The notes beneath the pieces are model-generated. The model made no database searches, was not told the origin of the DNA, and saw nothing but the letters and a program-made list of their open reading frames with translations. Positions 29,729 through 49,604 of a DNA stretch of 55,598 nt are shown here, one piece after another. The stretch is from a virus. The translations under genes were made by a program, and so were the position numbers. The stretch covers positions 1 through 55,598 of the IMG/VR virus record IMGVR_UViG_3300017433_000001; one strand, written 5' to 3'. How positions within the stretch are numbered: position 1 is the stretch's first letter; the number at the start of each line of letters is the position of its first letter.

Positions 29729-30655
29729 TCATGGATTGTAATCAGGGTTCATGCGGAAAAATTCATCTGCTCCGTAGATATTACCTTGATAGTCTATCAT
29801 TTCTCCTGCCCACAACGGCCAGCCGGCGAAATCGTGGCCAGCCCTATCAGCTCGCCACATCTCAACCACCTTCTCGGCCCGCTGTTGATTGGCGACGAAT
29901 TCATAGTCGCGGCAGGGTGCCCTCAGAAGAGGGTCATCGGGCGGGAACCTAGGGCCTTTCTGGAGCAAGTACGGCTCGAAGCCTGCCATATCGGCCACCC
30001 AAGAGAACCCGCCTTCGAAGAAGTATCGCGAGACTCCTGTCCCCTCGATAAGATTTTTCGTAAAAAAGCTTTCGGCGGCACTGGCTAAGAAGTTGCGTAA
30101 AGCAGTTCCGGTCATCCCGAAAAATGTAGCGTATGGAAAGATCCCGACCGGAGGGTACAAAGCCGGAAAGATCCGGCGAAGATAATCGACCGCCTCGCTT
30201 GATCTGCTTGTTGCAAGCATCGGGAGGGCACAGAACGTGCCGTGTCGTGTCGGATCGCAAAATGTCTCCACTTCGCTCCGGCGAGACCAGAACTCTCGCT
30301 CCATCACCTCTCGCAACCCATCGGTGTGCCGAAACGCGTCGTGGGTCGCCCCCTTTGTGTGGCCAAACCAGTAATAGTCGTGCTGCGCGCGCGTATTACG
30401 AAGCGTTCGTAGGGCGGACTGAAACCCCGAAACATCGGAGTTTACGACGAGGCGGTCGGGCGTTTCGCAGATGACGATGTCAAGATCTGCGTCGGCTAAA
30501 CTCGCGTGCCAACTGCGAGATGAACCGGAATTGATGCCAACATAGATCGTGCAGTCGCGGAACCGTCGCTGGAAAAGGTCGATGTAATAGGCGCCTACAT
30601 CTCTTGCCACTTCGGTGTCAGGAACGAAGGAAGAAAAAACAACAGCGTGCCGCAT
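29729..30655 (-). CDS. Hypothetical protein (308 aa), low-GC moron convergent with the tailspike
   Basis: Clean ORF with protein-like, Phe/Tyr/Trp-rich composition. I recognise no motif. Confidence 0.75.
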   Translation of the reverse strand: MRHAVVFSSFVPDTEVARDVGAYYIDLFQRRFRDCTIYVGINSGSSRSWHASLADADLDIVICETPDRLVVNSDVSGFQSALRTLRNTRAQHDYYWFGHTKGATHDAFRHTDGLREVMEREFWSRRSEVETFCDPTRHGTFCALPMLATSRSSEAVDYLRRIFPALYPPVGIFPYATFFGMTGTALRNFLASAAESFFTKNLIEGTGVSRYFFEGGFSWVADMAGFEPYLLQKGPRFPPDDPLLRAPCRDYEFVANQQRAEKVVEMWRADRAGHDFAGWPLWAGEMIDYQGNIYGADEFFRMNPDYNP

Positions 30656-31239: not shown

Positions 31240-32490
31240 ATGGCCGTGACCCTGACGGCGGCGCAGCTTCGCGCCGTCGCGAACACGCGTGCGCCGTTGG
31301 CCGACAAGATCGCGGACAGCTTCAACAAGCTGGCGCCAGCCTTCGCACTGACGACGCCTCTGCGGATCGCCCATTTTCTCGCACAGGTATCGCACGAGTC
31401 GGGCGGCTTCCAGTTCGTCAAGGAGCTATGGGGGCCGACCCCGGCGCAGAAGCGGTACGAGGGCAGGACGGACCTCGGCAACACGCAGCCGGGCGACGGC
31501 AGCAAGTTCCGGGGGCACGGCCTGATCCAAGTCACGGGCCGGGCGAACCATGCCGAGTTCACGGCCTGGATCAAGCGGCGATACCCCGAAGCGCCCGACT
31601 TCGTGGCCGAGCCCGAGGCTCTGGCCGAGTTTCCGTGGGCGCTGATGAGCGCGTTCTGGTTCTGGGACACGCGTGGGCTCAACGCGCTCGCCGACAAGGA
31701 CGACGTGGTCGCCGTGACAAGGAAGGTCAACGGCGGCACCAACGGACTGGCGGAGAGAAAGGCCGCGCTGAAACGGGCCAAGGCGGCCCTTGGTGAGGCG
31801 CTGGCTCCCATCGTCGCCCCGAAGGCCCGCAAGCCCGCCATGGCCCGTCCTGCGCCATCCGAGCCCCCGTCCGACGACGAGGCGCAGCCCGAGTTCGCGA
31901 TCCGAGGCGCACAGGAACGCCTCATCGCCCTGGGCTACCACGACGTGGGGCTCGTGGACGGCAAGAAGGGCAAGAAGTTCGCGAGCGCCATCCGCCAGCT
32001 TCAGGAGCGCGCCGCAGCCCTGGGCGACCGCGTGGCGGTGGATGGGCTCTACGGCCCGGAGACCCGCGCCCTGCTCGATGAGAAGCACGGCGACCGCTAC
32101 CGCAACGTGGTCTCCGACGAGCGCAAGAGCATCACGGCGACCGACCTCGCCCGGACCGGCACGCCCGGTGTCGTCACCGGCCGGCGCATCCAATGGGCCT
32201 CGCTCCTGGGCGCGCTCACGTCCCTTGTCGGCGCGGCCTACAGCGCGTGGCAGGCCCCGGCAGAGCTTCCGGTCGGGTCATCCATCGCCCTGGCTTTCCT
32301 GCCGCCGTGGGTGGCGGCCGTCGCGCCGTTCCTCTTCACCTTCCTGCCGCTGGCCTACACGACGCTCGCCGGCAGCGGGCTCGTCTCGACCTCCGTGGAG
32401 AGGGTTCGCGAGGGCATCGACAATTCGGGGGCTCCGCCGGCCAACCCCGGTCCCGGCGGGCTGTTCGGGTCGCTGTTCGGGGGGCGGTGA
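31240..32490 (+). CDS. Endolysin: GH19 (chitinase-like) muramidase + PG_binding_1 domain + C-terminal transmembrane segments
   Basis: AHFLAQVSHESGGF...GRTDLGNTQPGDGSKFRGHGLIQVTGRANH (GH19). GLVDGKKGKKFASAIRQLQ...VDGLYGPETRALL (PG binding). WASLLGALTSLVGAAYSAW and IALAFLPPWVAAVAPFLFTFLPLAY are hydrophobic. Confidence 0.85.
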   Translation: MAVTLTAAQLRAVANTRAPLADKIADSFNKLAPAFALTTPLRIAHFLAQVSHESGGFQFVKELWGPTPAQKRYEGRTDLGNTQPGDGSKFRGHGLIQVTGRANHAEFTAWIKRRYPEAPDFVAEPEALAEFPWALMSAFWFWDTRGLNALADKDDVVAVTRKVNGGTNGLAERKAALKRAKAALGEALAPIVAPKARKPAMARPAPSEPPSDDEAQPEFAIRGAQERLIALGYHDVGLVDGKKGKKFASAIRQLQERAAALGDRVAVDGLYGPETRALLDEKHGDRYRNVVSDERKSITATDLARTGTPGVVTGRRIQWASLLGALTSLVGAAYSAWQAPAELPVGSSIALAFLPPWVAAVAPFLFTFLPLAYTTLAGSGLVSTSVERVREGIDNSGAPPANPGPGGLFGSLFGGR

Positions 32491-32583: not shown

Positions 32584-32925
32584 ATGCTGGCCGAGCCCGC
32601 AATCTACGATCCATACCAAAGGCTGGGCGAACTCATGGGCGAGAACAATGATCGCGAAGGTATCTCGCCCCTGGTCGCGATGCAGATCGCGCAGGCGGTT
32701 ACCAATCAGAAGGTCGAGGAAGTCGGTCGGTTGGTGAACGAACTCCGGTCGGAAGTGCGAGAATTGAAAAGCACCTTCGCGACCAAGGATGACCTCAAGG
32801 ACATTCGTGAAGAGGTGAACGGCCTCAAAAGTTGGAATAAATGGGTGGTGCAGATCATCGGCGGCCTTATCCTCACCGCGATTATCGGCACAATCGTTAT
32901 CAAGGGTGGTGTGCCGCATCCATGA
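32584..32925 (+). CDS. Coiled-coil protein with extreme C-terminal TM helix (113 aa; holin/spanin-like candidate)
   Basis: Starts 1 nt after the upstream stop. VEEVGRLVNELRSEVRELKS is a coiled-coil stretch. C-terminal WVVQIIGGLILTAIIGTIVI. Confidence 0.65.
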   Translation: MLAEPAIYDPYQRLGELMGENNDREGISPLVAMQIAQAVTNQKVEEVGRLVNELRSEVRELKSTFATKDDLKDIREEVNGLKSWNKWVVQIIGGLILTAIIGTIVIKGGVPHP

Positions 32926-33539: not shown

Positions 33540-34118
33540 TTATTCAACCCAAGCCCAATTTCGGCGGAGGCATATTGCTGAAATGTTGCTTCTGCTCACT
33601 CCATAAATTTCGGAGAGTTCCGCATGGTTTGAGCCAGTTTTTGCCATCGCTCGGATGGCTTTAACGCTTTCCTCGTTCAGCTTTGTGAAAGACCGCTTCT
33701 TGTCCCCTCGGTTGTCTGTTCCGTGGTCAAGCCGGTCCGCTTGGTTCTCTTGATGGGTGGCCCAACGCAGATGGTGAGGGTTTACGCAGCCCTCGTTTCC
33801 TTTTCCGCAGTTATGTGCGGCTTCATGCCTTGAGGTAGGCGGAGGGCCATTGACCATTATACATACCACTCTAGCCGCCGCCTGCATTCGACCTTCGTGC
33901 GATACCATCGCATACCCAGTCCTATAATCTCTGGCATATGGCCACGGGATGCAGCCGGCACTCTCAGTCCCGACAAGGGAGTGCAAAAACCGTTTTGGCT
34001 CGCCTTTGCTGGTTTGCCCTGCGGTTGGGGAGCCGTGGCGCCAAAACCTTTTGTAGTGGGCACAGCAAAAACCACAGCTCTTTATGGGCTTATCGCATCC
34101 GTCTACAGCGCAACTCAT
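33540..34118 (-). CDS. HNH homing endonuclease (HNH_3 type) with C-terminal HTH
   Basis: CAHYKRF, HNCGKGNEGCVNPHHLRWATHQENQAD. Low GC. Free-standing after the lysis cassette. Confidence 0.85.
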   Translation of the reverse strand: MSCAVDGCDKPIKSCGFCCAHYKRFWRHGSPTAGQTSKGEPKRFLHSLVGTESAGCIPWPYARDYRTGYAMVSHEGRMQAAARVVCIMVNGPPPTSRHEAAHNCGKGNEGCVNPHHLRWATHQENQADRLDHGTDNRGDKKRSFTKLNEESVKAIRAMAKTGSNHAELSEIYGVSRSNISAICLRRNWAWVE

Positions 34119-34288
34119 ATGATGCCTCAGAATATTGAGCAGGATTTCTGGGAGACGGGGGCGTTGCAGACCACCGGGGACCCGCCGGCATGACCTGCCC
34201 CACCGACCCCCAAGACCTCACCGGGGTCTATGTGCTCCTGGCGTTGATGGTGGGGATGGTGTTGGGCGGGGTGGTGAGGCGGTAGAGG

Positions 34289-34507
34289 CTACCAGCGAGA
34301 GCGACCGAGGCTGGCTGGCGGCTTTTCGTCCAGCGGCCAGCGGCCTTCGCTCTCAAGCAGCCCCTGGATCGCCGGGCCTAGGTCAGCCAAGGCGCCCGGC
34401 ACATTGAGGCTCGACAGCGCCAGCCCCGGCAGCGTGTCGCTGTGGATGCGCAGGCCCCCATCGGGGCGGCGGGAGAACGTCAGGCTGACGGTGACTTCCT
34501 TGTCCAT
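34289..34507 (-). CDS. Hypothetical protein (72 aa), last gene of the RtcB operon
   Basis: Track ORF with an ATG start, same strand series. Confidence 0.5.
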   Translation of the reverse strand: MDKEVTVSLTFSRRPDGGLRIHSDTLPGLALSSLNVPGALADLGPAIQGLLESEGRWPLDEKPPASLGRSRW

Positions 34508-34535
34508 ACCCCATCCTCCATCCCGAGCCCGGCCG

Positions 34536-34754
34536 TCACTCCGACGCGTCGGGCTTTTTGCGTTCGAACAGTCGGGCGAGAAACGAAGGCGGTCGCTCGG
34601 GCAGTGTAGCTCTGCGCTCTCGCTCTGCTGCGTCTAGCTTTTGCCACCACGAGGCGGCCCGCGTCTTCTTTCGATCTTCATAAACACCCCAAGCCAGGGC
34701 GGCGGCGCTGAGAATAACGACTATGCTGACCCGCCAGACATCAATGCTTTCCAT
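34536..34754 (-). CDS. Small membrane protein (72 aa, N-terminal TM)
   Basis: WRVSIVVILSAAALAWGVY hydrophobic span followed by a basic tail. Confidence 0.55.
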   Translation of the reverse strand: MESIDVWRVSIVVILSAAALAWGVYEDRKKTRAASWWQKLDAAERERRATLPERPPSFLARLFERKKPDASE

Positions 34755-34782
34755 CGACTACTCCCCGCTTCCGCTTTCCCCC

Positions 34783-35016
34783 TCACCCAAAATCCCCCGT
34801 CCCCAGCACCCGCAACAACTCCCGCCCGGCCGGCGTCAGAAACCGCCCCATCTCCCCCGGCCTCGCCCCTTCCCATCGGGCCTGCCGCTCCACGACGTAT
34901 CCGAGTTCGATGAGCGCTGGCATGGACGAGGGGTGGGCTGAGAGCCGTAGCCCGCGCGGGTGAAGGGCGACGGCGCGCAGGGCTTCCAGGGCGCGGGGAC
35001 GGATGGGTGGGGTCAT
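34783..35016 (-). CDS. Hypothetical protein (77 aa), winged-helix-like
   Basis: ATGA overlap with the upstream gene. LIELGYVVERQ...FLTPAGRELL resembles a MarR-type wHTH (weak). Confidence 0.55.
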   Translation of the reverse strand: MTPPIRPRALEALRAVALHPRGLRLSAHPSSMPALIELGYVVERQARWEGARPGEMGRFLTPAGRELLRVLGTGDFG

Positions 35017-35222
35017 TCTGAGAAGGCGAGGCTTACGGTCTGGATCATGAGCCGCACCTTATCCTCTGGGCCGGAAACCTTGAACCGGATCGTGCTGCCG
35101 GCGCGCTCGTGGGAGATATCAAGCCCGCGGTCCCACGCGTGTTCGGTGATGGCGTTGATCAGGCCTTTGCGGATGAAGAACCCCGCCTCCATCATGAACG
35201 ACCTCTCGACGGTGGCGCTCAC
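35013..35222 (-). CDS. Hypothetical protein (69 aa)
   Basis: GTG start preceded by aaggagagag. Confidence 0.55.
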   Translation of the reverse strand: MSATVERSFMMEAGFFIRKGLINAITEHAWDRGLDISHERAGSTIRFKVSGPEDKVRLMIQTVSLAFSE

Positions 35223-35364
35223 GGCTCTCTCCTTCGCTCAGGCTACGGGGCGTCTCTGCCAGCGCCCGATCCACGATCCGACGCAGATGAACGACGATCT
35301 CCCCGCACCCTGGCACTCGGATGCGAACGATGCCTTGAATGCGGTCGGCTTCGGCTTGCGTCAC
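35119..35364 (-). CDS. Hypothetical ORF (81 aa) overlapping the next gene by 104 nt
   Basis: GTGA coupling to the upstream stop. The first ~47 codons look protein-like and the rest looks like off-frame sequence. Confidence 0.3.
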   Translation of the reverse strand: MTQAEADRIQGIVRIRVPGCGEIVVHLRRIVDRALAETPRSLSEGESRERHRREVVHDGGGVLHPQRPDQRHHRTRVGPRA

Positions 35365-35714
35365 GGCTCTTTCCCCTCTTCGGGCGAAGCGAGGGCGGGA
35401 CCTTCCGCCATCGCCAGATCAATCAAGGCCCGCAGGATCGTCCCTGGCAGATCGCCCTTTAGGGTCGCCACGGGATCGGTGCCGTTGACGAGCACGATGG
35501 TGTCGCCGAAGCTGTGGTTGCGGATAGCGTCGATAGCGGCGCGAGCCACCTCCATCATGTCGAACCGACCGTCCACCAGCACTTGCAGGGTGCCGTCTTC
35601 CGGCAAGGCGTGCTCGTCGTCGCCATCAATCGCCCAAGGCGCGAAAACACCCAGACCCCGGATGCGGGCCAACATCGCCCGCGCCACGGCCTCAACCATC
35701 ACGGTCTCACCCAT
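35361..35714 (-). CDS. Hypothetical protein (117 aa)
   Basis: Track ORF with acidic, protein-like composition. Confidence 0.6.
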   Translation of the reverse strand: MGETVMVEAVARAMLARIRGLGVFAPWAIDGDDEHALPEDGTLQVLVDGRFDMMEVARAAIDAIRNHSFGDTIVLVNGTDPVATLKGDLPGTILRALIDLAMAEGPALASPEEGKEP

Positions 35715-35772
35715 TCCCCTTCCTCCAACCCAGCCGCGCGGCGGCGTGCTTTAGGATCAAAATCAACGACGG

Positions 35773-35982
35773 CTATGGGCGCTTCTCGGCGTAGCCCTGC
35801 ATTGCAGAGACCGCGAACCGGCCGAGACTGGCTGGGTCGGTTGCGACGGTGATCGCGAGATACGCGGCGCCCGCCATGATGCTGAGAGCCAGGGTCCCGC
35901 AGAACGCGAACCACAGCTTGAAGCCGAGGCGCGAGGGCATGTTGCTGCGTGGGCGGTTCAGATTGGATCGCATCCCCCTCAC
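35773..35982 (-). CDS. Small membrane protein (69 aa)
   Basis: GTGA overlap with the upstream stop (ATG 35973 is an alternative). FKLWFAFCGTLALSIMAGAAYLAI TM span. Confidence 0.55.
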   Translation of the reverse strand: MRGMRSNLNRPRSNMPSRLGFKLWFAFCGTLALSIMAGAAYLAITVATDPASLGRFAVSAMQGYAEKRP

Positions 35983-36245
35983 TCCCCTTCCTCTGTCGAG
36001 CGAGCGGCGTCGGGTGGAGCAGCCTCAGTTAATTCTTTCACCATGAATTTATAGTGCGAAAGAAGAACTTTGCGCGCCCGTTCAATCGCTGCAGCGAGGG
36101 TGCAGTCCTGCAAACAAAACCAGGGGCTTTGGCCGGAGGCGACATAAAACGTACCTTCATGTTCGGCCCAACTGATAGGGTGGTGCAGATTTGGGTACTC
36201 AAGCTTCTGCCATGCCAAATTTAGTGTCGTCATCGCCTCACCCAT
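35979..36245 (-). CDS. Hypothetical protein (88 aa), low GC, possibly HicB/DUF1902-like fold
   Basis: ATG 36245 (M109 of ORF 35979..36569) after ggaggg, 4 nt downstream of the rtcB stop. The fold suggestion is a weak recollection. Confidence 0.6.
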   Translation of the reverse strand: MGEAMTTLNLAWQKLEYPNLHHPISWAEHEGTFYVASGQSPWFCLQDCTLAAAIERARKVLLSHYKFMVKELTEAAPPDAARSTEEGE

Positions 36246-36249
36246 CGTC

Positions 36250-37668
36250 TCAGCCCTCCACAGCCGTCGAGAGATCGAGAGGCGGGGTGGTATCAGCCTG
36301 CGGCTCGGTCGCAGCAGCCTTCTTCTTCCGCCACGGCGCGTCGGCCTCCCAATCGCCGGCCATGATGCTGCCGTAGGGCTCGACGGTGTCGACCACGTCG
36401 GCGAGGCCGTATTTGGCGATCTGAGCGCGGACGGACGCGGCGTCCTTGTAGGCGCCGGGCAGTTCGGACAGGTCGGGCTTACCGCAGTAGAACCGGGCGT
36501 CGATGCCCTCGGGCCACTCTGGCGTTCCCGTGCGCAGGTAGGCCGTGCGGCTGAGATTGCGGCCGGCACCGTGCGGCGCGAAGCCGAGGGTTTCGGGCCG
36601 GTCGCGGTGGCGCGCGATGAGGATCGGCTGGCCCATGTTGAGCGGGATTAGCGTCCGGCCGTCATCGTCCGGTGAGAAGCCTGCCCAGGACGGCGTCGCG
36701 CCCTTGCCGTGATAATAGAGCCCATCGTCGCGTCGGAAGACGAAGTTGTGCTCGTTCCAGAACCGATCTGCGATGCCTGCGCCCAGCCGATCCAGGGTAA
36801 GGCCGTGGATGGCGTAGTGGCTCTCTCGGGTCCACTCGCGCACGATCTGGAGCGCGTCCCAATAGGCACGCCCGTCGTCACTGTCGGCCTTGATCCAGGC
36901 GTTGTGCGGCGGGACTGTCGGGGCGACCTTTGCCGTGTGCCGCTTCGCGACCGACATGCCCTTCTTGTAGAGCTGCGCACCGAACCCACGCGAGCCATGG
37001 TGCGTGACCAAGGCGATCTGCCCCGTCGAGGCGAGGCGACCGACATAGGCGAAGTGGTTGCCGTCGCCCTGACTGGCGAAGTCGCCCACGGCGCGGCTGG
37101 CGATGTCCGACAGGAAGGCATTCGCGGCGACCCGCTCCATCATTTCGGCCGGCGGCGTCAGCACGTCCTTACGCCCGCCGGGACCGAAGTGCGTCACGGC
37201 GTGGACAGCGTCGAGAACCGCTTTCGGATCGTGTTCGCCGGCCAGGACCGTGATGGCGACCGAACAGCAGATGTCGGCCGAGTGGAAGCCGGGGTGGATC
37301 GCATCCTCGCACGCCACAGCCCCGCCGACCGGGATGGTGCCGGGCTGCGAACCTGACGGGCAGGCATCCGGCATGACTGCGCCCGCGCGGATCGTGGGCA
37401 GGCGCATCAGCACATCCATGTGCTCAAACACCTTCGCGGCGTTGTCGCGCTCGGCCTCGTTGTTCGTGTCGAGGAACACGCCGTAGGGCAGGGGTGCATC
37501 CCGCATCGGGATCGTTTCCGGCACGAGGTCGTGGGCTGCCATGATGATCGTGTCGACGGCGGCGCCCTCGGCATACATCGCGTTCGCGACTTCGATGGCT
37601 TCCGCGAAGTGCTTGCCGGGCTTGAGCCCCCAGCCGATCAGCGTCGCGCCTGTGATCGTCTCAGCCAT
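36250..37668 (-). CDS. rtcB: RtcB-family RNA 3'-phosphate/2',3'-cyclic phosphate ligase
   Basis: ATG 37668 after aggaga. Motifs parallel E. coli RtcB: HSADICCS (VDIGCG), GDGNHF (GTGNHF), HHGSRGFG (HSGSRGIG), NEHNF (HHNY), PHGAGRN (SHGAGR), LPGAYKD. Confidence 0.9.
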   Translation of the reverse strand: MAETITGATLIGWGLKPGKHFAEAIEVANAMYAEGAAVDTIIMAAHDLVPETIPMRDAPLPYGVFLDTNNEAERDNAAKVFEHMDVLMRLPTIRAGAVMPDACPSGSQPGTIPVGGAVACEDAIHPGFHSADICCSVAITVLAGEHDPKAVLDAVHAVTHFGPGGRKDVLTPPAEMMERVAANAFLSDIASRAVGDFASQGDGNHFAYVGRLASTGQIALVTHHGSRGFGAQLYKKGMSVAKRHTAKVAPTVPPHNAWIKADSDDGRAYWDALQIVREWTRESHYAIHGLTLDRLGAGIADRFWNEHNFVFRRDDGLYYHGKGATPSWAGFSPDDDGRTLIPLNMGQPILIARHRDRPETLGFAPHGAGRNLSRTAYLRTGTPEWPEGIDARFYCGKPDLSELPGAYKDAASVRAQIAKYGLADVVDTVEPYGSIMAGDWEADAPWRKKKAAATEPQADTTPPLDLSTAVEG

Positions 37669-37721
37669 AGCGTCCGGTCTCCTGTTCGAGCGGGGGAAGG
37701 TTGGGTTAGGGGGAGGGGGCG

Positions 37722-38573
37722 TCAGGCGGCGGCCCGCTTCGGAACGGGCCCCTTGCCCTCCATCCAAAGCTCAAGTTCCTCGACGGTGAACCAACCGTGG
37801 TTGTTGTTCTGCTGGTCTTGCGGGTTGAGCCAGAACATCACGGGGTGCTTCGAGTCGTCCCTCCGATTTGCAGAAATCGTGTCTGGAGACAGGGCGTAGA
37901 ACCCGCGACCATAACCGCCCTTGGATCGCGCCCACCTTTCAATACGCTCACGAATGCCGGTGGCTTCCGCCGCGTCTTTGATGGCTTTGCGATCTCGAAA
38001 GCCCGACTCCATCTGGTCGATCAACTTCCTTGGGATCGTGGAGCGTCGCACGATGACGAGCCCCGAGCCGCCGAAGGGGTTTGAACTTCCGGCGAGGTAG
38101 ATCAGGGCGTCGTTCTCGATCAGAGCGGTATGGATCGAGCGGATGATGAAGTCGTCCGGCCCGCCCTTCGGCGCGGAGAACAGGAAGGCGCCCTCATCCC
38201 AATGGGCCTGCGGCTTGTCCTTGGACGGGTAGCTTTCACGGTAGCCCGCAACGAACTCCTCGACTGTCTGCGCGCCGTACGGCCCTTCGTCACCGCCGAG
38301 CAGGAACAGCCGCTTGTGCGACGCGCTCTTGCCCCGGCCCGACGAGTAGTCGGTCGTTTTCACAGGCGTCTCGATCAGCTGGGCCTTTTCGGGCGATCCG
38401 GTCGTCACCGCGTACCGCTGGACCGTCAGGTCGGTTTCGTCGTTCGAGACGCCGAACGCGGACCGCAGCTTGCCGATGCCGAACTCGTGCTCGGCACAGA
38501 AGTCGTAGCCGAACGAGAGGAGGAGATTGTCACCCTCGCGGAGAGTGGCGACGTTCTGACTTGCCCTGCGCAT
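37722..38573 (-). CDS. Uncharacterised 283-aa protein, first gene of the RtcB operon
   Basis: ATG 38573 after ggagag. Well-behaved composition. I recognise no family motif. Confidence 0.75.
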   Translation of the reverse strand: MRRASQNVATLREGDNLLLSFGYDFCAEHEFGIGKLRSAFGVSNDETDLTVQRYAVTTGSPEKAQLIETPVKTTDYSSGRGKSASHKRLFLLGGDEGPYGAQTVEEFVAGYRESYPSKDKPQAHWDEGAFLFSAPKGGPDDFIIRSIHTALIENDALIYLAGSSNPFGGSGLVIVRRSTIPRKLIDQMESGFRDRKAIKDAAEATGIRERIERWARSKGGYGRGFYALSPDTISANRRDDSKHPVMFWLNPQDQQNNNHGWFTVEELELWMEGKGPVPKRAAA

Positions 38574-38594
38574 TGCTCTCTCCGGTTGCCTCAA

Positions 38595-38660
38595 ATCAAC
38601 ATGACGTATAATCTACATGGCGTTGATTTAGAGCGCAAGGGCTATCTACGTGGCGTTGAT
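38595..38660. promoter_or_regulatory. Divergent promoter/operator region with three copies of a 17-bp box
   Basis: ATCTACATGGCGTTGAT (38611-38627) and ATCTACGTGGCGTTGAT (38644-38660) lie 33 bp apart. A 12/17 inverted copy sits at 38595-38611. TATAAT at 38607-38612. TTGCGC-N17-TAGATT on the minus strand. Confidence 0.5.
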
Positions 38661-38700
38661 CGCTTGTGGTGATGCGGCTGCCGCGCTATCGCGCCGGGCA

Positions 38701-38985
38701 ATGGACAACGAGCCGTGGCAGATACGGGCTCAGGCGGCTGGCCTTGAGCAAAAGACGCTGGCCCGCCTCCTTGGCCGGCCGGTGAACACGATCTCGCGTC
38801 AGATCCGGGGGGTTCATGGCGAGGTGCCGCAACATCTCATCGCCGTCATCGTGGCCTGGGAGATGATGGAACCGGACGAGCGGGTCGTATGGCTCTCGAC
38901 CGTGGAGCGGGAGGTTCGCGCCTCGCCGCCTTCCGCTTCCCTCACCCGCCGCGAGCGCCCCCGCCCCAATCCGAAAACAGATTGA
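38701..38985 (+). CDS. HTH transcriptional regulator (94 aa), divergent from the RtcB operon
   Basis: GLEQKTLARLLGRPVNTISRQIRG is an XRE/Cro-type helix-turn-helix. ATG 38701 (the GTG at 38650 would overlap the operators). Confidence 0.7.
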   Translation: MDNEPWQIRAQAAGLEQKTLARLLGRPVNTISRQIRGVHGEVPQHLIAVIVAWEMMEPDERVVWLSTVEREVRASPPSASLTRRERPRPNPKTD

Positions 38986-38996
38986 GGGGAGGGGGA

Positions 38997-39326
38997 CTAG
39001 GGACCCGGAAACAGGTCTGGCTGACCAACCTTGCGAAAGCGCGTCTGCCGGGCGTTCCGCTGGTGCTGCTCGTGGTCCCACTTCAGATGGCACCGCTGGC
39101 AGAGCGCGCGGAGGTTGTCGTCCTCGTTGTTCGCCACGTCCTGATCCATGTGGGCGATGGTCAGGACGACCTTGCTGCCGGTCTCGGGATGTGGCTCGCG
39201 GTTCACGGCCCGGCACTCAGGGTGCTGCGGCGTGCCTTCGCAGGCGTCGCCAGCCCTTGCGATGATCCGCCCTCGGATGGCGAGCCATGCTGCCGAACGG
39301 ATCGATCCGCCGGGGTACAGCTTCAT
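38997..39326 (-). CDS. HNH endonuclease (small HNH_5-like, 109 aa)
   Basis: ATG 39326 (M51 of ORF 38997..39476). HMDQDVANNEDDNLRALCQRCHLKWD. Confidence 0.8.
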   Translation of the reverse strand: MKLYPGGSIRSAAWLAIRGRIIARAGDACEGTPQHPECRAVNREPHPETGSKVVLTIAHMDQDVANNEDDNLRALCQRCHLKWDHEQHQRNARQTRFRKVGQPDLFPGP

Positions 39327-39337
39327 GCGTTCGCTGC

Positions 39338-39715
39338 TTATCGGCACGGCGTTTCCTCCTTCGGGGTTGCGGGTGCGGGGAGGGGGCAGCCGCAATGCTC
39401 GCGAACCATGGCGCGAAGCTCCTCCCACGAGCGCGACCCGACAGGCTCGTCCCGGCCGGTTTCCGAGAAGAACCATGCGCGCTTGAGCGTCCCCAGGTCC
39501 GTCAGGTGGTCGTCGTTCATACAGAGGGCGACGGCGGCGGTGATGCCCTTGCGCCGCCGCTCAATCTCGGCGGCCTCGTCGGCGATATCCTTCGCCAAGT
39601 CCTCGACTAACTGCCGCTGCCTGCCGTGAAGCCGATTGATTTGCCGACCGCTCATGTCGGGCATGGGGTTGTAGAGTAGGGCGATCCTGTTCGCGATTTC
39701 CTGTGCGTCGTTCAC
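39338..39715 (-). CDS. Hypothetical protein (125 aa)
   Basis: Track ORF. ATGA-type coupling to the upstream gene. Confidence 0.6.
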   Translation of the reverse strand: MNDAQEIANRIALLYNPMPDMSGRQINRLHGRQRQLVEDLAKDIADEAAEIERRRKGITAAVALCMNDDHLTDLGTLKRAWFFSETGRDEPVGSRSWEELRAMVREHCGCPLPAPATPKEETPCR

Positions 39716-40086
39716 GGCGTTTCGCCTCCCTGCGCGAGGTTAGGAGCGACGGGGGGAGTGGGGCCGTAGCCGTGAGGCTTCCAGTCCATGCGCGAGAGCT
39801 TCCAGGCCATTCGCTCACGGGCCGCGAGGCAGCCTTCCGAGCCAGGCTGGAAGGTCTGGCAAACTCGCGGTCGGCGGCTGTAAATCCCGCATCGGACGGA
39901 TGTTCCAATCTCGCCCCCTAGGGCGACGCACCGTCCGCCGATGTGCTTCGCCATGAAGCGACGATCTCCGTCACTTCTGTTCGAACAGAGCATCTGCGGC
40001 GGCATCCACTCGTCACGCGCGACCGGCACGGCCCCGGCCTCGACGCAGCACGCCCCGCACGCTTGGCAGTTCAGGGCGGCGCTCAA
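39712..40086 (-). CDS. YkgJ-family zinc/iron-chelating domain protein (CxxCxxCC)
   Basis: CQACGACC motif plus downstream Cys residues. TTG 40086 overlaps the upstream stop (TTGA) and follows ggggagag. Confidence 0.7.
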   Translation of the reverse strand: MSAALNCQACGACCVEAGAVPVARDEWMPPQMLCSNRSDGDRRFMAKHIGGRCVALGGEIGTSVRCGIYSRRPRVCQTFQPGSEGCLAARERMAWKLSRMDWKPHGYGPTPPVAPNLAQGGETP

Positions 40087-40577
40087 CGTCCGCTCTCCCC
40101 TGCGGAGAGGGAGGGGGCAGACTGCAACCACAGCCACGCATCACGGGTCCACAGCGCGTCGGACAGGGCGTGGTGTTCGCCGTAGGTCTGTTCGGGCGGC
40201 TTACCGCAGCCGACGCGATCGATTTCCTGCTTCAGGTCCCGGACGTACATCGGCCAGCCCTCAGGCAACTCCATCATCGTGCCGTAGAGTTGGCAGAGCG
40301 CGACCCAATCGTAGGAGGCGTAGTAGGCCCAGAACTCGGGGTTGGGGCCAGCGAACTCGATGAGGTCACTCTTGATACGCTGGCGATACCTCATTGCGTT
40401 GCCGAGCTTCAGGTGCGGAGCTACGTTCGCCGCCAGCCATTCGCTCTGTCGGCAAAAATACAGGCACTCCATCGTCTCGGCGTAGTAGGTCGCACCGTCC
40501 TCGCGCACGGCGCCGATGCTGATAAGGTCGATGGTGGTGCCGTTCTCGTAGAACTCGGTGTCAAACCAGATTTTCAT
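40083..40577 (-). CDS. DEDDh 3'-5' exonuclease, Rv2179c/RNase-AS-like exoribonuclease family
   Basis: MKIWFDTEF...IDLISIGAV, WAYYASYDW and HHALSDA match the DEDDh triad and the recalled PF16473 pattern. Confidence 0.8.
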   Translation of the reverse strand: MKIWFDTEFYENGTTIDLISIGAVREDGATYYAETMECLYFCRQSEWLAANVAPHLKLGNAMRYRQRIKSDLIEFAGPNPEFWAYYASYDWVALCQLYGTMMELPEGWPMYVRDLKQEIDRVGCGKPPEQTYGEHHALSDALWTRDAWLWLQSAPSLSAGESGR

Positions 40578-40581
40578 GGCC

Positions 40582-41166
40582 CTACGCCCTCTCTGCGGTG
40601 GAGGGGGCAGAGGCGGGCCGTATGAACGGGCTTCGAGACCGCCCCTTCGCGGCCATGTCCGCCACGTTGTCGACCTGCCGTCCTAAGCTCAGGTGCGCCG
40701 GGTTGCAGCACGCAGGATTATCGCAAGAGTGCATCACCACAGTGCCGTGGTGTTCTTCGGCGTTGGTGATGGGGCCTTTCGTAAGGGCGTAGATCAGCCG
40801 GTGCGGCAGGTATAGCTTGCCGTCGACCTTAAAGCGTCCGTGACCAAAGTTCGACTTCGCTGCCGTCCAAGGCCAGCACTGATCCGGCTCGCCCTTTTGG
40901 ACCTTGGACCATAGGCGATACTCTTCCCAGGGCTTGAGAACCGGAAGGTCAACGGCCTTGAGCGCCTTCGGGGTTGGCGCGGGTCGGTGAGCCTTCCGAG
41001 CTGCCAGTCGTTCGGCAACCGCGCGCTCTGCCGCGTCAAGGCGCGCGAGGCGGCGTTGCCAGCGGTCGGGCTCGTACATGCGCATCTTGCGAAGCGCCAT
41101 AGCCCTGCGTTTTTCAGCGATGTCGGGATGCGGTACGGCAGCAGGCAAATCGGCCTCCAGCGTCAC
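40582..41166 (-). CDS. HNH homing endonuclease (HNH_3 type)
   Basis: CWPW...GHGRF...LPHRLIY...HSCDNPACCNPAHLSLGRQVDNVADM. GTG start. Confidence 0.85.
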   Translation of the reverse strand: MTLEADLPAAVPHPDIAEKRRAMALRKMRMYEPDRWQRRLARLDAAERAVAERLAARKAHRPAPTPKALKAVDLPVLKPWEEYRLWSKVQKGEPDQCWPWTAAKSNFGHGRFKVDGKLYLPHRLIYALTKGPITNAEEHHGTVVMHSCDNPACCNPAHLSLGRQVDNVADMAAKGRSRSPFIRPASAPSTAERA

Positions 41167-41383: not shown

Positions 41384-42697
41384 TTGGCTGACTACCTGAC
41401 GAAGCGGGACGGGTTCTGGCACTTCGTGCGGCGCGTTCCAGAGGCGTTCAAGACCCTCGACAAGCGCGGCATCGTCAAGCAGTCGACGGATATTCGGGTA
41501 GCTGACGATCCGCTCAGGAAGCGGGCGCGCGAGGCGTCCCGCAAGATCAACGCGCAGTTGGAAGCCTACTGGCGCGGGATGGTGGACGGACAGTCGGCCG
41601 AGGCGCAGCGCCGGTACGATGCGGCTAGGGCACGCGCCAGAAGCCTAGGCTTCGATTACGCCTCCGCCGATGAGATCGCGGGTATGCGGCGGATCAGCGA
41701 AATCCTGTCCCGCATGGAAGCCCTGATGCGGAAGGGCGACCCGAACAGCGAACAGGACATGGCAGCGGCGTTCGGCGGAGAGGCGCCACCCAGCCTGATG
41801 CTGTCTGGCCTGTTCGATGTGTTCGAGGGGTTGAGCGCAGGGTCCATGGGCGATCTGTCTCCAGACCAGAAGCGGAAATGGGCCAACCCGAAGAAGCGCG
41901 CCTTGGCGAACCTCATCGAAGTTGTCGGCGACAAGGAGATCGGGGCCGTCACGCGGAACGACGCCCTGGACTTCCGAGAGTGGTGGACGAAGCGCGTTCT
42001 CCAAGAGGATATGGAGATCGACACGGCCAACAAGGACATCGGCCACATCTCCAAAATGTTCAGGACGGTCGAGACCTGCCGCCGCCTCGGGCTCGCGCCC
42101 GTGTTTCAAGATCTGCGGATCGAGGGCGGAGTTACGGAAAGTCGCTTTCCGTTCGCCCCGTCTTTCGTCCAGGACCGGCTTCTGATGACCGGCGCCCTCG
42201 ACGGTTTGAACGAAGAGGCGAGGCGGGTCCTGTACCTAATGGTCGAGACGGGCCTTCGCTTGTCCGAGTGCGCCAACTTGACGGAGAAAACGATCATCCT
42301 GAACCACGCGGTGCCTCACGTTCAGGTCCGCCCCGATGGGCGGAGGATGAAAACGACTCAGTCCAACCGGGACATTCCCCTGGTAGGCGTTGCCCTCATG
42401 GCGATGCAGGCGCAGCCGGGCGGCTTTCCGCGATACCGTGATAAGGCCGGCAGCTTGTCAGCGACCGTGAACAAGTTCCTGCTGGAGAACGGTATGCGCC
42501 CCAAGGAGGATCAAACCGCCTACTCGCTGCGCCACACCTTCGAGGACCGTCTTACGGCAGTCGAAGCCCCGGAAAAGATGATCGCGGGCTTCATGGGGCA
42601 CAAGCACAACCGCCCGAAATACGGGTCGGGGCCGACCTTGGAGCACAAGCGGGAATGGCTTCAGCGGATCGCTTTCAAACCGCCGTCCAGGGTGTGA
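41384..42697 (+). CDS. int: Tyrosine recombinase / phage integrase
   Basis: 437 aa. RLSECANL (Arg), AYSLRHTFEDRL (HxxR), GHKHNRPKYG (His...Tyr). TTG start as in the track. Confidence 0.9.
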   Translation: MADYLTKRDGFWHFVRRVPEAFKTLDKRGIVKQSTDIRVADDPLRKRAREASRKINAQLEAYWRGMVDGQSAEAQRRYDAARARARSLGFDYASADEIAGMRRISEILSRMEALMRKGDPNSEQDMAAAFGGEAPPSLMLSGLFDVFEGLSAGSMGDLSPDQKRKWANPKKRALANLIEVVGDKEIGAVTRNDALDFREWWTKRVLQEDMEIDTANKDIGHISKMFRTVETCRRLGLAPVFQDLRIEGGVTESRFPFAPSFVQDRLLMTGALDGLNEEARRVLYLMVETGLRLSECANLTEKTIILNHAVPHVQVRPDGRRMKTTQSNRDIPLVGVALMAMQAQPGGFPRYRDKAGSLSATVNKFLLENGMRPKEDQTAYSLRHTFEDRLTAVEAPEKMIAGFMGHKHNRPKYGSGPTLEHKREWLQRIAFKPPSRV

Positions 42698-42942
42698 CGT
42701 TCGAGGGCCTGCCGAGCGCGATCCATGACGTCCAGGCTGCGCCGTGCTTCGAGAATTTCTCGCTCCATGCGCTCCAGCAGCGGCGCATAGACGACGCCGT
42801 GCGTGATGACAGCCCAAGCGAAGAACGTGTAGGCCCGCTCTAGATCCGAAAAACTGATTTCCGGCTCCCGCCGCTCGTCAGCGCGCCGTGTACCGGCCGG
42901 GTCACCCCGTGGCGCAGCCCTAGCCTTCGCCATGGCGCTCAT
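42661..42942 (-). CDS. Hypothetical protein (93 aa), convergent with and overlapping the int 3' end
   Basis: Track ORF, last gene of the leftward early operon. It overlaps int by 37 nt. Confidence 0.5.
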   Translation of the reverse strand: MSAMAKARAAPRGDPAGTRRADERREPEISFSDLERAYTFFAWAVITHGVVYAPLLERMEREILEARRSLDVMDRARQALERHTLDGGLKAIR

Positions 42943-43321
42943 CCTTCGCTACGGGACTGGTGGGGGAGGGGACTGCCCCTCCGCGTTCAGCGAGGGCGGC
43001 GCGGACCTGAGCGGCGTCGGCTTCCTGGCCGGGCCAGGGGTTCGCCACCATCGAGAAGGCTCGTTGGACCGCGATCCGCAGCTTCTCGATCTCGATCTGC
43101 CGCATCATGGCGGCGTGGGTCGCTTCGTACTCCCCGGACCGTCGCCAGATCTCCTGCTGGTCCCACGGCTTGAAGACGTCGCGGATCACATGGTGGCCGC
43201 CATACAGGAAGCCTTGGATGCGATCCGGGGCGCCGTCCATGGCGTCCACCAACAGCGCCAGGAACCCGTCGTTCTGCACCATGATCTCAAGAGGAGCCGT
43301 CAGTCCCGTGCCCTTAGCCAT
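42920..43321 (-). CDS. Hypothetical protein (133 aa)
   Basis: ATG 43321 (M68 of ORF 42920..43522) overlaps the upstream stop by 8 nt. Confidence 0.6.
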   Translation of the reverse strand: MAKGTGLTAPLEIMVQNDGFLALLVDAMDGAPDRIQGFLYGGHHVIRDVFKPWDQQEIWRRSGEYEATHAAMMRQIEIEKLRIAVQRAFSMVANPWPGQEADAAQVRAALAERGGAVPSPTSPVAKDERHGEG

Positions 43322-43889
43322 CGGTCCGGCCTCCGGGGGTGGTCGGCGGGGCGGGGAGGGGCATCCAGTGGGTGGCAGTCCAGTAGCTCCCCATCTCGAT
43401 AACTCGGATGCCGTCCGCCTCGCCGTCTCCAATCCAAGAGCCCCTTTCGAACCAGACATCAGCCTCGCGCCATTGCCGGCATGACGAGTGCTCGCAAAGC
43501 CATAGGTCGACATGCGTCCCATCCTTCGGCGCCGTCTCGATGGGCTGCCAGCTTTCAGCCCGTGCGGCGGCGACAGCCTCGGTTAGGGTGGTGGGATCGA
43601 TGAGGCGGCCGGCGCGGTAGTCGTTCTCCAATCGGCAGAGAAAGGCGCTGATGGCCTCCGTCTGCCGTGGCTGGCGGCCCTCGGCTCGGGCCGCACTTTG
43701 TTCCGCCTCGTCGTCGTCGCCCTTAGCCACGAAAATCACGGGGCGGAAACCATCCTCGCGCAATGGGCCTCGAACCCACCCCCAATCGTCGAATTTCTGA
43801 GGGCGTACGGTCCACGGACCTTTCGGCGCCGCCTCAGAAAGCTCCCGCAAGCTCGGCGCGCTCTGTGTCTCAGCCATGGGGGTGCTCAT
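43314..43889 (-). CDS. Hypothetical protein (191 aa) with DUF551-like C-terminal segment
   Basis: ATGA overlap at 43886-43889 (M88 of ORF 43314..44150). WQPIETAPKDGTHVDLW pattern. Confidence 0.6.
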   Translation of the reverse strand: MSTPMAETQSAPSLRELSEAAPKGPWTVRPQKFDDWGWVRGPLREDGFRPVIFVAKGDDDEAEQSAARAEGRQPRQTEAISAFLCRLENDYRAGRLIDPTTLTEAVAAARAESWQPIETAPKDGTHVDLWLCEHSSCRQWREADVWFERGSWIGDGEADGIRVIEMGSYWTATHWMPLPAPPTTPGGRTDG

Positions 43890-44122
43890 GCGGAGGGCTC
43901 CGATTGGTGAGTGCCCAGACGATCCGGTGCCCAGACGGAGACGCCGGTCTTGGTCCGAACCACGCCGAACGTGTTGGCGAGGTCGCTGCCCTGAGTGACG
44001 GCCATCACGGCTCCCGGCTCGGGGCCAAGGCCATTGGCGAGGGCGAAGCTCGCGCAGCGGACCATTGAGACGAGGTCGAGGGTTGAGGCGCCCTCGTTTG
44101 CGTTGAGGATGATCCGCATCAC
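43886..44122 (-). CDS. Hypothetical protein (78 aa)
   Basis: ATGA overlaps on both sides. Confidence 0.55.
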   Translation of the reverse strand: MMRIILNANEGASTLDLVSMVRCASFALANGLGPEPGAVMAVTQGSDLANTFGVVRTKTGVSVWAPDRLGTHQSEPSA

Positions 44123-44706
44123 GGTTGCTCCTTCGGGGAGAGGGTTGCAAGGAGGGACTGAGCAGCGCGGAGATCGCGGGCTCGGACCATTAGATTGACG
44201 ACGAAGTCATCTGGCCAAGCGGGACCGGGTGCACGCACCGCGAACGGCCTCAGTGCGGCCCCCAGCGCCTCCATCCCCTCCTTGAGGCGGGTGATCTCGG
44301 CTTCGGCGGCGCGGAGGGAGGCGCGAACCTCGGCCTGGATTTCCATCTCGGCATCTAGCGTGGCCTGGATGGCGTTGGCGCGAGCCTCTTCAGCATCGTG
44401 CCGGTCTTCCGCCTTCTCTGCGCCGATGACGATCAGATCCATCTTCGCTTTCAGGCTGGGCCAGCCGTCGCGCGAACCAGTCCATTCCTCGACCTCGGCA
44501 ACAGTCGCGACCGCCGCATCCCGCTCGGCGATGAGCGAGGCACGGTCTGCGGCGGCGAGGCCGGCGACGATCTCGCCGAAATCGATCAGCAACTCCTCGA
44601 TGACGGGCCGGTGGTAGCCGTATCGCTTTTGGAACTCAGCCAAAGCTTCGGCGACACAGGGCGCCAGCGCCTCGCGCGGGCCGTTCTGGTCTTCGGGGGC
44701 GGTCAT
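44119..44706 (-). CDS. Hypothetical coiled-coil protein (195 aa)
   Basis: Ala/Glu/Arg-rich helical sequence in a coupled gene chain. Confidence 0.65.
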   Translation of the reverse strand: MTAPEDQNGPREALAPCVAEALAEFQKRYGYHRPVIEELLIDFGEIVAGLAAADRASLIAERDAAVATVAEVEEWTGSRDGWPSLKAKMDLIVIGAEKAEDRHDAEEARANAIQATLDAEMEIQAEVRASLRAAEAEITRLKEGMEALGAALRPFAVRAPGPAWPDDFVVNLMVRARDLRAAQSLLATLSPKEQP

Positions 44707-46432: not shown

Positions 46433-46890
46433 GCGGAGACCTCCGTGCGAGCGGGGACAGGTTCGTCGGGCTGATTTTGATATTTGCCGTTGCCGTAACC
46501 GCGCTCGGGCGGCGCCATCATCTGGTGAAAGACGATCTGCGCGATGGGCTGGCCGGCTTTCAGGACGACTGGTCCAGGTGCGTGACAGACAATCTCAAGA
46601 GTGAGATGTCCTTTCCACGAGGGCTCAAGGCACGTGTTGAAGAGGCTGACGCCCTGGCGGGCCAGGGTGCTCTTATCGAGCACGAAAGCCATCACGTCGG
46701 CCGGAATGTCGAAGTGCTCAATTGTGGACGCAAGGCAGAACTCGCCTTGCTCAAGGGATCGGTCCTGCTTGATGCGGACATCGTATCCACCGTGGCTCAA
46801 GCCGAAGCTCAGACCGGTGTCGTGAACCGTGCGCTCCACGAACGGCGTCACGATCCCGCGTTCGCGGATCATCCAATCGGGGAGGATCAT
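46429..46890 (-). CDS. dcd: dCTP deaminase (dUTPase-fold)
   Basis: MILPDWMI...PF....GLSFGLSHGGYDVRI...LASTIEHFDIP...LDKSTLARQGV...EPSWKGHLTLEI...IAQIVF is a typical Dcd pattern. Confidence 0.85.
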   Translation of the reverse strand: MILPDWMIRERGIVTPFVERTVHDTGLSFGLSHGGYDVRIKQDRSLEQGEFCLASTIEHFDIPADVMAFVLDKSTLARQGVSLFNTCLEPSWKGHLTLEIVCHAPGPVVLKAGQPIAQIVFHQMMAPPERGYGNGKYQNQPDEPVPARTEVSA

Positions 46891-48516: not shown

Positions 48517-48768
48517 ATGGGTGGCGCGAGGCTCGACGGGATGGACGACCTCGTGGCCCTTGGCGTCGGCTGTGAGAACTGCGGAAGAAAGAGACGACTG
48601 GCTAGGTCTCACATCGCAAGGCTGATTGGCCCCGGAATTCACACCGTAGAGCAGCTGGGGCAGCGCCTGAAGTGTCGCCCCTGCGCAGAGCGCGGGCTGG
48701 CCAGCAAAAACATCACCATTGTGCCGTACTATCGATGTGACGTGGCAGTCGCCGTAAAGGCGCTATGA
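48517..48768 (+). CDS. Small zinc-ribbon protein (83 aa) convergent with the repressor gene
   Basis: ATG 48517 after aaaggga. CENCG...CRPC motif. Overlaps the cI-like 3' end by 6 nt. Confidence 0.5.
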   Translation: MGGARLDGMDDLVALGVGCENCGRKRRLARSHIARLIGPGIHTVEQLGQRLKCRPCAERGLASKNITIVPYYRCDVAVAVKAL

Positions 48769-49515: not shown

Positions 49516-49526
49516 GCGAAATCGAA

Positions 49527-49604
49527 TAAGCGTCACTTACTGACTTTCAAGCAAAGTCTCACTTGCGCACTTTCGTAAGCCGTGCTTATGATAAGCGCAT
49601 GAGC
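49527..49604. promoter_or_regulatory. Rightward operator cluster between the cI-like and cro-like genes
   Basis: TAAGCGTCACTTA (49527-49539), TAAGCCGTGCTTA (49576-49588, reverse complement of the 48358 box) and a weaker TAAGCGCATGAGC (49592-49604). Confidence 0.5.

Follow-up and report, generated by a model that had tools for sequence, protein, structure and literature searches.

The genome in IMG/VR virus record IMGVR_UViG_3300017433_000001 (positions 1 to 55,598, hereafter called the window) carries a gene for an RtcB RNA ligase, rtcB, next to a gene for a 283-amino-acid (aa) protein of no recognised type, g283, and this locus raises the question of whether the two genes belong to one RNA-repair system. 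The window, 55.6 kb long with a GC content of about 65%, looks like a complete temperate phage, and its host was probably a member of the Alphaproteobacteria. The original prediction, made from the sequence alone, described about ten tightly packed minus-strand open reading frames (ORFs) running from 38573 to 34289 between the lysis cassette and the attP side of the genome. The strand and the packing were as described and the number of ORFs was nine; adjacent ORFs are separated by gaps of 4-138 nt or overlap by 4 nt. The position of the arm was also borne out, as endolysin and tyrosine integrase genes flank it (Table 1). However, g283 is not clearly the lead gene of an operon, as had been proposed. 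The minus-strand genes carry on upstream of g283 to about 41166 and resume past the integrase, and the sole interruption between g283 and the upstream minus-strand genes is a small plus-strand helix-turn-helix (HTH) gene. We consider that the region of 34289-38573 is probably a section of a leftward accessory arm built from exchangeable cassettes, and not a dedicated RNA-repair operon.

Linkage of g283 and rtcB and the junctions of the arm

The linkage of the two genes was examined in both directions. We collected 88 g283 loci with 10-kb flanks (1.6 Mb in total) and searched them with the window RtcB by tblastn, which found nothing, and with a hidden Markov model (HMM) built from 78 phage RtcBs, which gave no match (0/88) at the threshold of E ≤ 1. 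When the g283 HMM was used against 81 RtcB loci, the window itself was the only locus found. Furthermore, tblastn of the seven small proteins of the arm (g88, g69m, g117, g69, g77, g72m, and g72) against 80 RtcB loci gave no match. g88 matched itself alone among 5.8 billion proteins, and g117, which has only three homologues, is present in a sister phage that has neither g283 nor rtcB. This sister phage, L253, shares with the window the integrase (97% identity), one HNH endonuclease (87%), g117 (97%), and a 308-aa protein (29729-30655 in the window; 99.7%). Another sister phage, L003, shares g283 (85%), the endolysin (95%), and the exonuclease encoded upstream of g283 (62%) and is without rtcB; a 98-aa ORFan is found in place of rtcB between the same conserved junction sequences.

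The original prediction had regarded g283 and the small downstream proteins as partners of RtcB in a regulated RNA-repair module, for which co-occurrence of g283 homologues with rtcB was the proposed check. Such co-occurrence was found in neither direction, and the genomic comparisons do not support the module. Across these loci, g283 and RtcB behave as separate cassettes with no genomic link. Their adjacency in the window would be an accident of assortment, and a novel g283/RtcB repair complex is not worth pursuing.

Subsequently, the gene junctions were compared among six contigs, namely the window, L003, L253, L261, L262, and the short contig L260. Outside the shared genes, blastn detected homology only in blocks of 30-70 bp with 90-100% identity. 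These blocks, hereafter called linkers, are located exactly on the gene junctions, and the homology stops sharply at their ends. Up to 13 blocks were observed in the same order in the window, L003, L253, L261, and L262 (10-12 per longer relative), and L260 contained three of the ordered blocks. The spacing between linkers varies; in the window linkers A and B are 1439 bp apart, and in the other contigs 240-498 bp. Every linker includes 9-12 codons from the end of the upstream gene with its stop codon, and it supplies the gene that follows with a Shine-Dalgarno (SD) sequence, a start codon, and the first 2-4 codons. The linkers are mutually distinct, each junction having its own. Linker A is 94-100% identical in five other contigs in which the flanking genes differ. 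In the arm, conserved junctions form a scaffold for interchangeable, mostly unrelated genes.

The proteins encoded in the slots between linkers illustrate this arrangement. g283 occupies the slot before linker A, and RtcB occupies the slot between linkers A and B. The slot A-B proteins are 472 (RtcB), 98, 112, 71, 154, and 90 aa long and mutually unrelated; all six start with MAE(T/R)T and five of the six end with DLSTAVEG. The six slot B-C proteins likewise share a tail containing AARSTE, which reads AARSTEEGE in four of them. Unrelated proteins in the same slot share their termini because the linkers overlap both coding ends. The relatives of RtcB found elsewhere start with M..ITGxTLIxWG and end with DAPWRKK; since these native relatives have neither MAET nor LDLSTAVEG, the first four and the last nine residues of the window RtcB are linker-derived. 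Slot E-F (35217-35398) contains no ORF of 35 aa or more in the window, where linkers E and F are separated by about 110-120 nt, as they are in L261. This slot is apparently empty in these two phages; in L003 and L262 it carries a gene for a 111-aa protein.

The other cargo of the arrays is of the conflict or host-takeover type. In L261 the g283 slot is taken by a DUF4942 methyltransferase, HD_4 proteins are found in L261 and L262, and further cargo of the relatives includes a Thg1-like enzyme, a metallophosphatase (Metallophos), and a P63C protein. The Rv2179c-like exonuclease of the window is cargo of this type as well.

A C-rich box, CCCCCTCCCC, was also recognised in many of the linkers. 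With one mismatch or less it was counted 24 times, where 9 occurrences were expected, and no shuffled sequence out of 100 had as many. We also considered hairpins that would sequester the SD sequence, and these were rejected because six of the eight linkers folded no better than their shuffles (z -1.5 to +1.2). An integron-like array was rejected as well; the linkers differ from one another, and the same six of eight lack the better-than-shuffle folding expected of attC-type hairpins. Separately, junction blocks with 87-100% identity to L003 and L253 were observed at 42930-44701 and 39345-40616 of the window. As such blocks lie both upstream of the HTH gene and past the integrase, the whole arm from about 44.7 to 34.1 kb seems to be scaffolded alike.

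The pattern suggests that cassettes are swapped by homologous recombination inside the linkers, perhaps with the aid of the Sak4-like annealing protein that the phage encodes. The linkers would also keep each incoming gene translationally coupled. Boundary sequences are known from other mosaic phages, including the gene-boundary homologies of lambdoid phages, the PeSL (promoter early stem-loop) cassettes of T4-type phages, and the start-associated sequences of cluster K mycobacteriophages. In those systems, too, short conserved junction sequences flank non-homologous genes and serve as sites for modular exchange. The array of the window differs in that at least 12 consecutive junctions each have a unique linker, the order is fixed, and both coding ends are overlapped; its linkers have no common stem-loop. 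By analogy, the array would be a variant of the boundary-sequence mode of phage mosaicism. The scaffold is an unusually clean natural record of accessory-gene exchange between related temperate phages. The linkers are fixed landmarks for mining cassettes from metagenomes, and their slots hint at safe insertion sites for engineering such phages.

The g283 family

The original prediction could not assign g283, and we reached the same result. No match was found in Pfam, PHROGs, NCBIfam, or PADLOC, 75 family members scanned singly against Pfam and PHROGs gave no match either, and names are absent from the homologues held at NCBI. An exhaustive profile search yielded 2,045 cluster representatives at E ≤ 1e-3 and 1,142 at 1e-30, with lengths of 247-321 aa among the best 150 listed. 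Cultured phages almost lack the gene: among 50,697 GenBank phage records it was found in one, an uncultured 595-kb phage. IMG/VR contigs of 150-530 kb often carry it, and further copies were found in isolate contigs of Alphaproteobacteria, in contigs of metagenome-assembled genomes from the candidate phyla radiation, and on large plasmids of Bosea, Acidiphilium, and Variovorax. g283 represents a very large family of proteins that is specific to mobile elements.

Two motifs, D-x-C-A-E-H-E-W-G and F-W-L-N-P-x-x-Q...G-W-F-T-V-E-E-L, are conserved in the family, and the conserved positions include M1-R2, D24, E28-H29-E30, W125, T205-G206, S229-P230, L249-N250-P251, Q254, and G260-W261. M1-R2 is near-invariant across the family, which supports the ATG at 38573 as the start codon. 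The AlphaFold (AF2) model of g283 had a predicted local distance difference test score (pLDDT) of 92.3 and a predicted template modelling score (pTM) of 0.87. When this model was compared with PDB and BFVD using Foldseek, no structure was matched at E ≤ 0.001, the best E values being 0.059 and 0.013 with template modelling scores below 0.17. The g283 profile did not match any PDB sequence at E ≤ 1. Judging from the predicted model and the two structure databases compared, g283 would be a protein with no detectable relative, which is short of a proven new fold. Because it combines a confident structure, strictly conserved polar residues, and no detectable relative, g283 is a good target for functional screening, for example with defence-system libraries.

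The neighbours of g283 vary, and no family was common to more than 9 of 59 lineage groups. Two recurrent blocks were observed in large phages. The first contains Thg1-like, transmembrane (TM), g283, 190-aa, DHFR-like, likely nuclease, NUDIX, and helicase-like proteins, and the second contains a UvrD-like helicase, two small proteins, g283, a TM protein, and NMNAT-like and NAMPT-like proteins. Of these names, Thg1 and NUDIX were confirmed with Pfam and the remainder were read from the sequences.

On plasmids, two distant and longer homologues (348-369 aa) were observed, both near genes for type IV secretion system (T4SS) coupling proteins. One is directly downstream of a DEAD/DEAH helicase gene on Acidiphilium cryptum pACRY02 (L266, 3713-7975), and the other is between a VacB/RNase II exoribonuclease gene and a DHHA1 phosphoesterase gene on Variovorax sp. 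SRS16 plasmid 2 (L267, 4935-9065). Temperate phages related to the window carry other RNA enzymes in the corresponding arm. One of them, L170 (JGI Ga0540663_0005236), encodes a Thg1-like tRNA 5'-end repair enzyme at 3294-4115, six genes downstream of its g283 homologue. A weak RLIG1-like match was observed at 2776-3222 of L172, where it lies with YAcAr and DUF3850 proteins upstream of g283.

A functional pair of Thg1 and g283 was considered and rejected. A Thg1-like gene was near g283 in 11/88 loci and in L170, but g283 was found in 0/80 Thg1 loci; because of this reverse result, the association is lineage synteny at most.

These neighbourhoods bear on a rather unlikely alternative, in which g283 would be an RNA- or nucleotide-directed enzyme (RNA-end processing, decay, or NAD/ADP-ribose) acting as an independent early counter-defence gene. 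In that case the arm would have a genuine RNA theme, at the level of functional category and not as an RtcB complex. The acidic/His motif D24-x-x-x-E28-H29-E30, which is invariant or nearly so, and the confident fold prediction are consistent with such an enzyme, as are the Thg1-like genes within 10 kb of g283 in the 11 loci and in the equivalent arm of L170, the NUDIX and NMNAT/NAMPT neighbours in large phages, the positions of the two plasmid copies, and the DUF4942 methyltransferase in the same slot of L261. However, the neighbours shared by lineage groups are few, the reverse test with Thg1 was negative, DNA-metabolism neighbours (UvrD, DHFR, and Dda-like helicases) are equally frequent, and neither PDB nor BFVD offered a likeness in fold or sequence to a known enzyme.

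Under the cassette interpretation of the arm, g283 would be an independently mobile and early-expressed gene, probably for an enzyme, with counter-defence or nucleic-acid metabolism as the best guess for its role. An early conflict gene is suggested by where it lies and what surrounds it, and the neighbours on plasmids and in phages would fit a conflict or nucleic-acid function expressed early. Two bolder readings, that g283 founds a new-fold enzyme family and that the in-frame linkers with their fixed order serve as a scaffold dedicated to cassette exchange, appear unlikely. If true, the first would mean about 2,000 clusters at 50% identity, mostly from uncultured phages with some plasmids, having an early-expressed counter-defence or nucleic-acid-processing function; the second would mean that a phage population, by means of its own annealing protein, moves counter-defence genes, among them those for RtcB, Thg1, HD hydrolases, and methyltransferases, from one fixed expression slot to another. 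What remains of moderate interest at this locus is the dark g283 family together with the linker scaffold.

The RtcB ligase

The prediction that RtcB is full-length with its metal and nucleophile motifs was confirmed. RtcB matched PF01139 with 100 bits (cut-off 27) and phrog_1075 with an E value of 1e-92 over residues 3-452, and it retains every column that is at least 97% conserved among the 78 phage RtcBs. In an alignment through PDB with Pyrococcus horikoshii RtcB, D132/C135 corresponded to D95/C98, H224 (HHGSRG) to H234, and the nucleophile H366 in PHGAGR to H404 (CHGAGR). N204-H205 (GNHF) and H307 (EHNF) are among the at least 97% conserved family columns, and the equivalence of H205 and H307 to P. 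horikoshii H203 and H329 was assigned by direct motif reading. An N-terminal extension of about 80 aa is also present in 72 of the 78 phage homologues. Scores for the NCBIfam equivalogs were far below the cut-offs (61 bits against 407 for NF007153 and 33 against 272 for the PrfH-linked TIGR03073).

The best isolate match was the RtcB of Bradyrhizobium phage BDU-MI-1 (ARQ95432.1; 63% identity). Viral contigs often carry this clade (at least 86 loci), and its neighbourhoods vary. tRNA or tmRNA genes were located within 6 kb of rtcB in 15/60 loci. DEDDh-type exonuclease-like, HD hydrolase-like, and RNA-ligase-like proteins, whose names were read from sequence alone, were near rtcB in 7-10 loci each. 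Domain scans of the neighbours of the window rtcB found no archease, RtcA, RtcR, PrfH, or Pnkp/Hen1, and searches of the 55.6-kb window for tRNA, tmRNA, and Rfam families gave no match.

Two side observations were made in this clade. An HD-domain gene annotated as 'GTP pyrophosphokinase' (RelA/SpoT-type-like; L002, 4903-5457) abuts rtcB in BDU-MI-1, and such a RelA/SpoT-like HD gene recurs near this RtcB clade, in seven loci in all. In IMGVR_UViG_3300037467_001050 (122.9 kb; L173 and L100), an RtcB of this clade and a Thg1-like gene are about 10-20 kb apart, and the latter shares 72% identity with its L170 counterpart.

The window RtcB resembles other phage RtcBs, such as those of BDU-MI-1, Sphingobium phage Lacusarx, and jumbo phages, in being full-length and stand-alone with its catalytic residues and in the variable neighbourhood. 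It differs in belonging to a 55-kb temperate phage without tRNA genes and in being grafted in-frame into a linker slot, gaining the N-terminal MAET and the C-terminal LDLSTAVEG. The cellular Rtc operon (RtcR-RtcA-RtcB) and RtcB2-PrfH share the catalytic domain family, whereas the window has no RtcA, RtcR, PrfH, or archease nearby and its equivalog scores are far below the cut-offs. The window RtcB is an ordinary protein that adds a further case to a class of phage RNA-repair enzymes already known.

In phage T4, Pnk and Rnl1 repair tRNA-Lys cleaved by PrrC, a case that PMC7824862 also cites. The logic proposed for RtcB would be the same by analogy, in that a phage ligase reverses RNA breaks inflicted by a defence, while the T4 enzymes differ from RtcB in chemistry and fold. 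RtcB needs no kinase or phosphatase because it joins a 3'-phosphate or 2',3'-cyclic phosphate to a 5'-OH directly using GTP. As its intact motifs predict, the window RtcB would be a stand-alone ligase with this end specificity, and its most likely task during lytic growth is to reseal tRNA or rRNA that RNases of the host or of a rival have cut. Such a role of phage RtcB as tRNA repair against host RNases has already been proposed (PMC7824862, PMC5648845). We found no direct test of a phage rtcB in the literature. The repair of RNA cut by defence nucleases, an existing hypothesis and not a new one, is the most plausible role for this gene.

Another role that we consider improbable is lysogenic conversion, in which RtcB would guard host translation from ribotoxins, for instance colicin-type or contact-dependent RNases, or from toxin-antitoxin RNases and would not serve lytic growth. 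The phage is temperate, with an integrase and a CI-like repressor, and RtcB-family ligases can shield cells from rRNA-cleaving toxins, as in the bacterial RtcB2-PrfH systems. However, the window rtcB lies in-frame within a translationally coupled string of early genes and showed no promoter- or terminator-like site of its own in the scans. Moreover, its relatives are mostly in large, probably virulent phages, some of them near tRNA genes, and the PrfH-linked model scored far too low, as given above. A single co-evolved module of g283, RtcB, and the small downstream proteins would suit the adjacent, co-oriented, and tightly packed genes and the Rv2179c-like exoribonuclease in the same arm, but it is very improbable given the absent co-occurrence by HMM in both directions (0/88 and 0/81 loci), the small genes without any tie to RtcB, and the exchange of rtcB beside a retained g283 in L003.

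Several points weigh against the reading of this region as a string of swapped cassettes with a repair ligase among them. The exact cores of linkers A and B were found in only a few contigs, all belonging to a single JGI/ENA project, and recombination within the linkers is deduced from the pattern of six contigs of that one sampling project; conservation of the linkers mainly for their role in translation initiation would be an alternative. Promoter and terminator scans of the arm gave chance-level counts, which do not inform on the direction or unity of transcription. RNA enzymes lie near g283 in some genomes (Thg1-like in 11/88 loci; RNase II, DHHA1, and a DEAD-box helicase on plasmids), and a loose functional tie of g283 to RNA may exist. 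For T4 the target nuclease PrrC is known, whereas no RNA-cleaving defence or cognate nuclease is known for the window phage or its host. In a published case, deletion of the rtcB of a bacterial host left phage plating unaffected (PMC4933390).

Genes and sites of the arm

The features of the arm and its surroundings are listed in Table 1.

Table 1 Location of the linkers, the arm genes, and the landmark genes in the window
Feature	Positions	Strand	Remarks
Endolysin	31240-32490		flanks the arm
XhlA-like protein	32584-32925		
HNH endonuclease, low-GC	33540-34118	-	C-terminal HTH; PF13392 E 6e-7, phrog_59 1e-21
Conserved array end block	34139-34285	-	91-94% over 125-147 bp in L003 and L253
g72, last cassette of the array	34289-34507	-	GC3 0.85; no Pfam/PHROG match
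Linker G	34523-34565	-	
72-aa protein	34536-34754	-	N-terminal TM segment; GC3 0.62
g77, small basic protein	34783-35016	-	no Pfam/PHROG match
g69, orphan cassette	35013-35222	-	GC3 0.84; no Pfam/PHROG match
Linker F	35217-35249	-	
Linker E	35361-35398	-	
g117	35361-35714	-	cassette 97% identical in L253
Linker D	35699-35758	-	
Small membrane protein, 66-69 aa	35773-35982	-	one hydrophobic helix in translation; GC3 0.84
Linker C	35971-36025	-	93-100% identical in five other contigs
g88, low-GC ORFan, 88 aa	35979-36245	-	GC3 0.55; tail PPDAARSTEEGE linker-encoded
Linker B	36239-36284	-	RtcB tail LDLSTAVEG*, SD GGAGGG, g88 start
rtcB, phage-type RtcB RNA ligase, 472 aa	36250-37668	-	PF01139, phrog_1075
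Linker A	37656-37723	-	C-rich box, SD GGAG, ATG, first four rtcB codons (MAET)
g283, 283 aa	37722-38573	-	uncharacterised phage/plasmid family
Small HTH protein, 94 aa from ATG	38701-38985	+	divergent from g283; GTG start at 38650 in the ORF list
Conserved hairpin block	38941-39001		between convergent HTH and HNH genes; 92-100% identical in relatives
Rv2179c-like (RNase AS type) DEDD exonuclease	40083-40577	-	PF16473 38.7 bits, cut-off 27; phrog_2259 2e-43
Tyrosine integrase	41384-42697		flanks the arm at the other side
CI-like repressor	48763-49536		distant from the arm
Sak4-like annealing protein	52590-53387		single-strand annealing protein

The GC content at third codon positions (GC3) was 0.78-0.85 in seven of the nine arm ORFs and backs their coding. 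It was low in g88, in agreement with the low GC content first noted for this protein, and in the ORF at 34536-34754, and coding of these two is less certain. PADLOC models matched none of the nine arm proteins, and the HTH protein gave sub-threshold matches only; a reading of the arm as a defence system was rejected on this result.

Among the small cassettes, the membrane protein likely starts at the ATG at 35973, within the conserved linker C. A paralogy of g88 and g72 was rejected, as no BLASTP similarity was detected, and a HicB/DUF1902-like assignment was dropped for want of a Pfam match. The AF2 model of g117, made from four sequences, was unusable (pLDDT 41). g77, described as wHTH-like in the original prediction, matched no Pfam or PHROG family and is 42% identical to the gene immediately downstream of the Thg1-like gene in L170. 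The protein at 34536-34754 showed sub-threshold similarity to DUF2514 and Rz-like spanins (E 3e-4 and 0.012).

The HTH protein upstream of g283 gave weak Pfam matches to HTH_38, HTH_31, and Xre-like families (E 5e-4 to 5e-3), all under the cut-offs. In relatives, its slot holds an opposite-strand gene of 72-102 aa, which is HTH_3 in one case. Two copies of a CGTAGAT/TGTAGAT motif, CACGTAGATAGCC and CCATGTAGATTAT, were observed at 38574-38700, between the divergently oriented g283 and HTH genes, and are possible operator half-sites. The conserved hairpin block at the other end of the HTH gene folded better than its shuffles (z = -2.2).

The minus-strand set at 38997-41166 consists of an HNH endonuclease, a CxxCxxCC protein, the Rv2179c-like exonuclease, and a second HNH endonuclease. 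The exonuclease had been predicted as an RNase-AS-like exoribonuclease, and its PF16473 score is above the cut-off. Three HNH endonuclease genes are thus located in or beside the arm (33540-34118, 38997-39476, and 40582-41166). That at 33540-34118 has a GC content of about 54% at all three codon positions; because the genome is 65% GC, this composition suggests a recently acquired element, likely a homing element. Linker positions led us to start codons that differ from the longest-ORF calls. The CxxCxxCC gene likely starts at a TTG (40084-40086) that overlaps the exonuclease stop codon (TTGA) and would encode 124 aa, not 141. The HNH gene at 38997-39476 likely starts at a GTG near 39347, with which its 139-nt overlap with the upstream ORF vanishes.

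Two nucleotide-metabolism genes fall outside the arm finding. A dCTP deaminase-like gene was observed at 46429-46890, and the C-terminal domain of the protein encoded at 51117-52091 matches phrog_801 (dATP/dGTP pyrophosphohydrolase).

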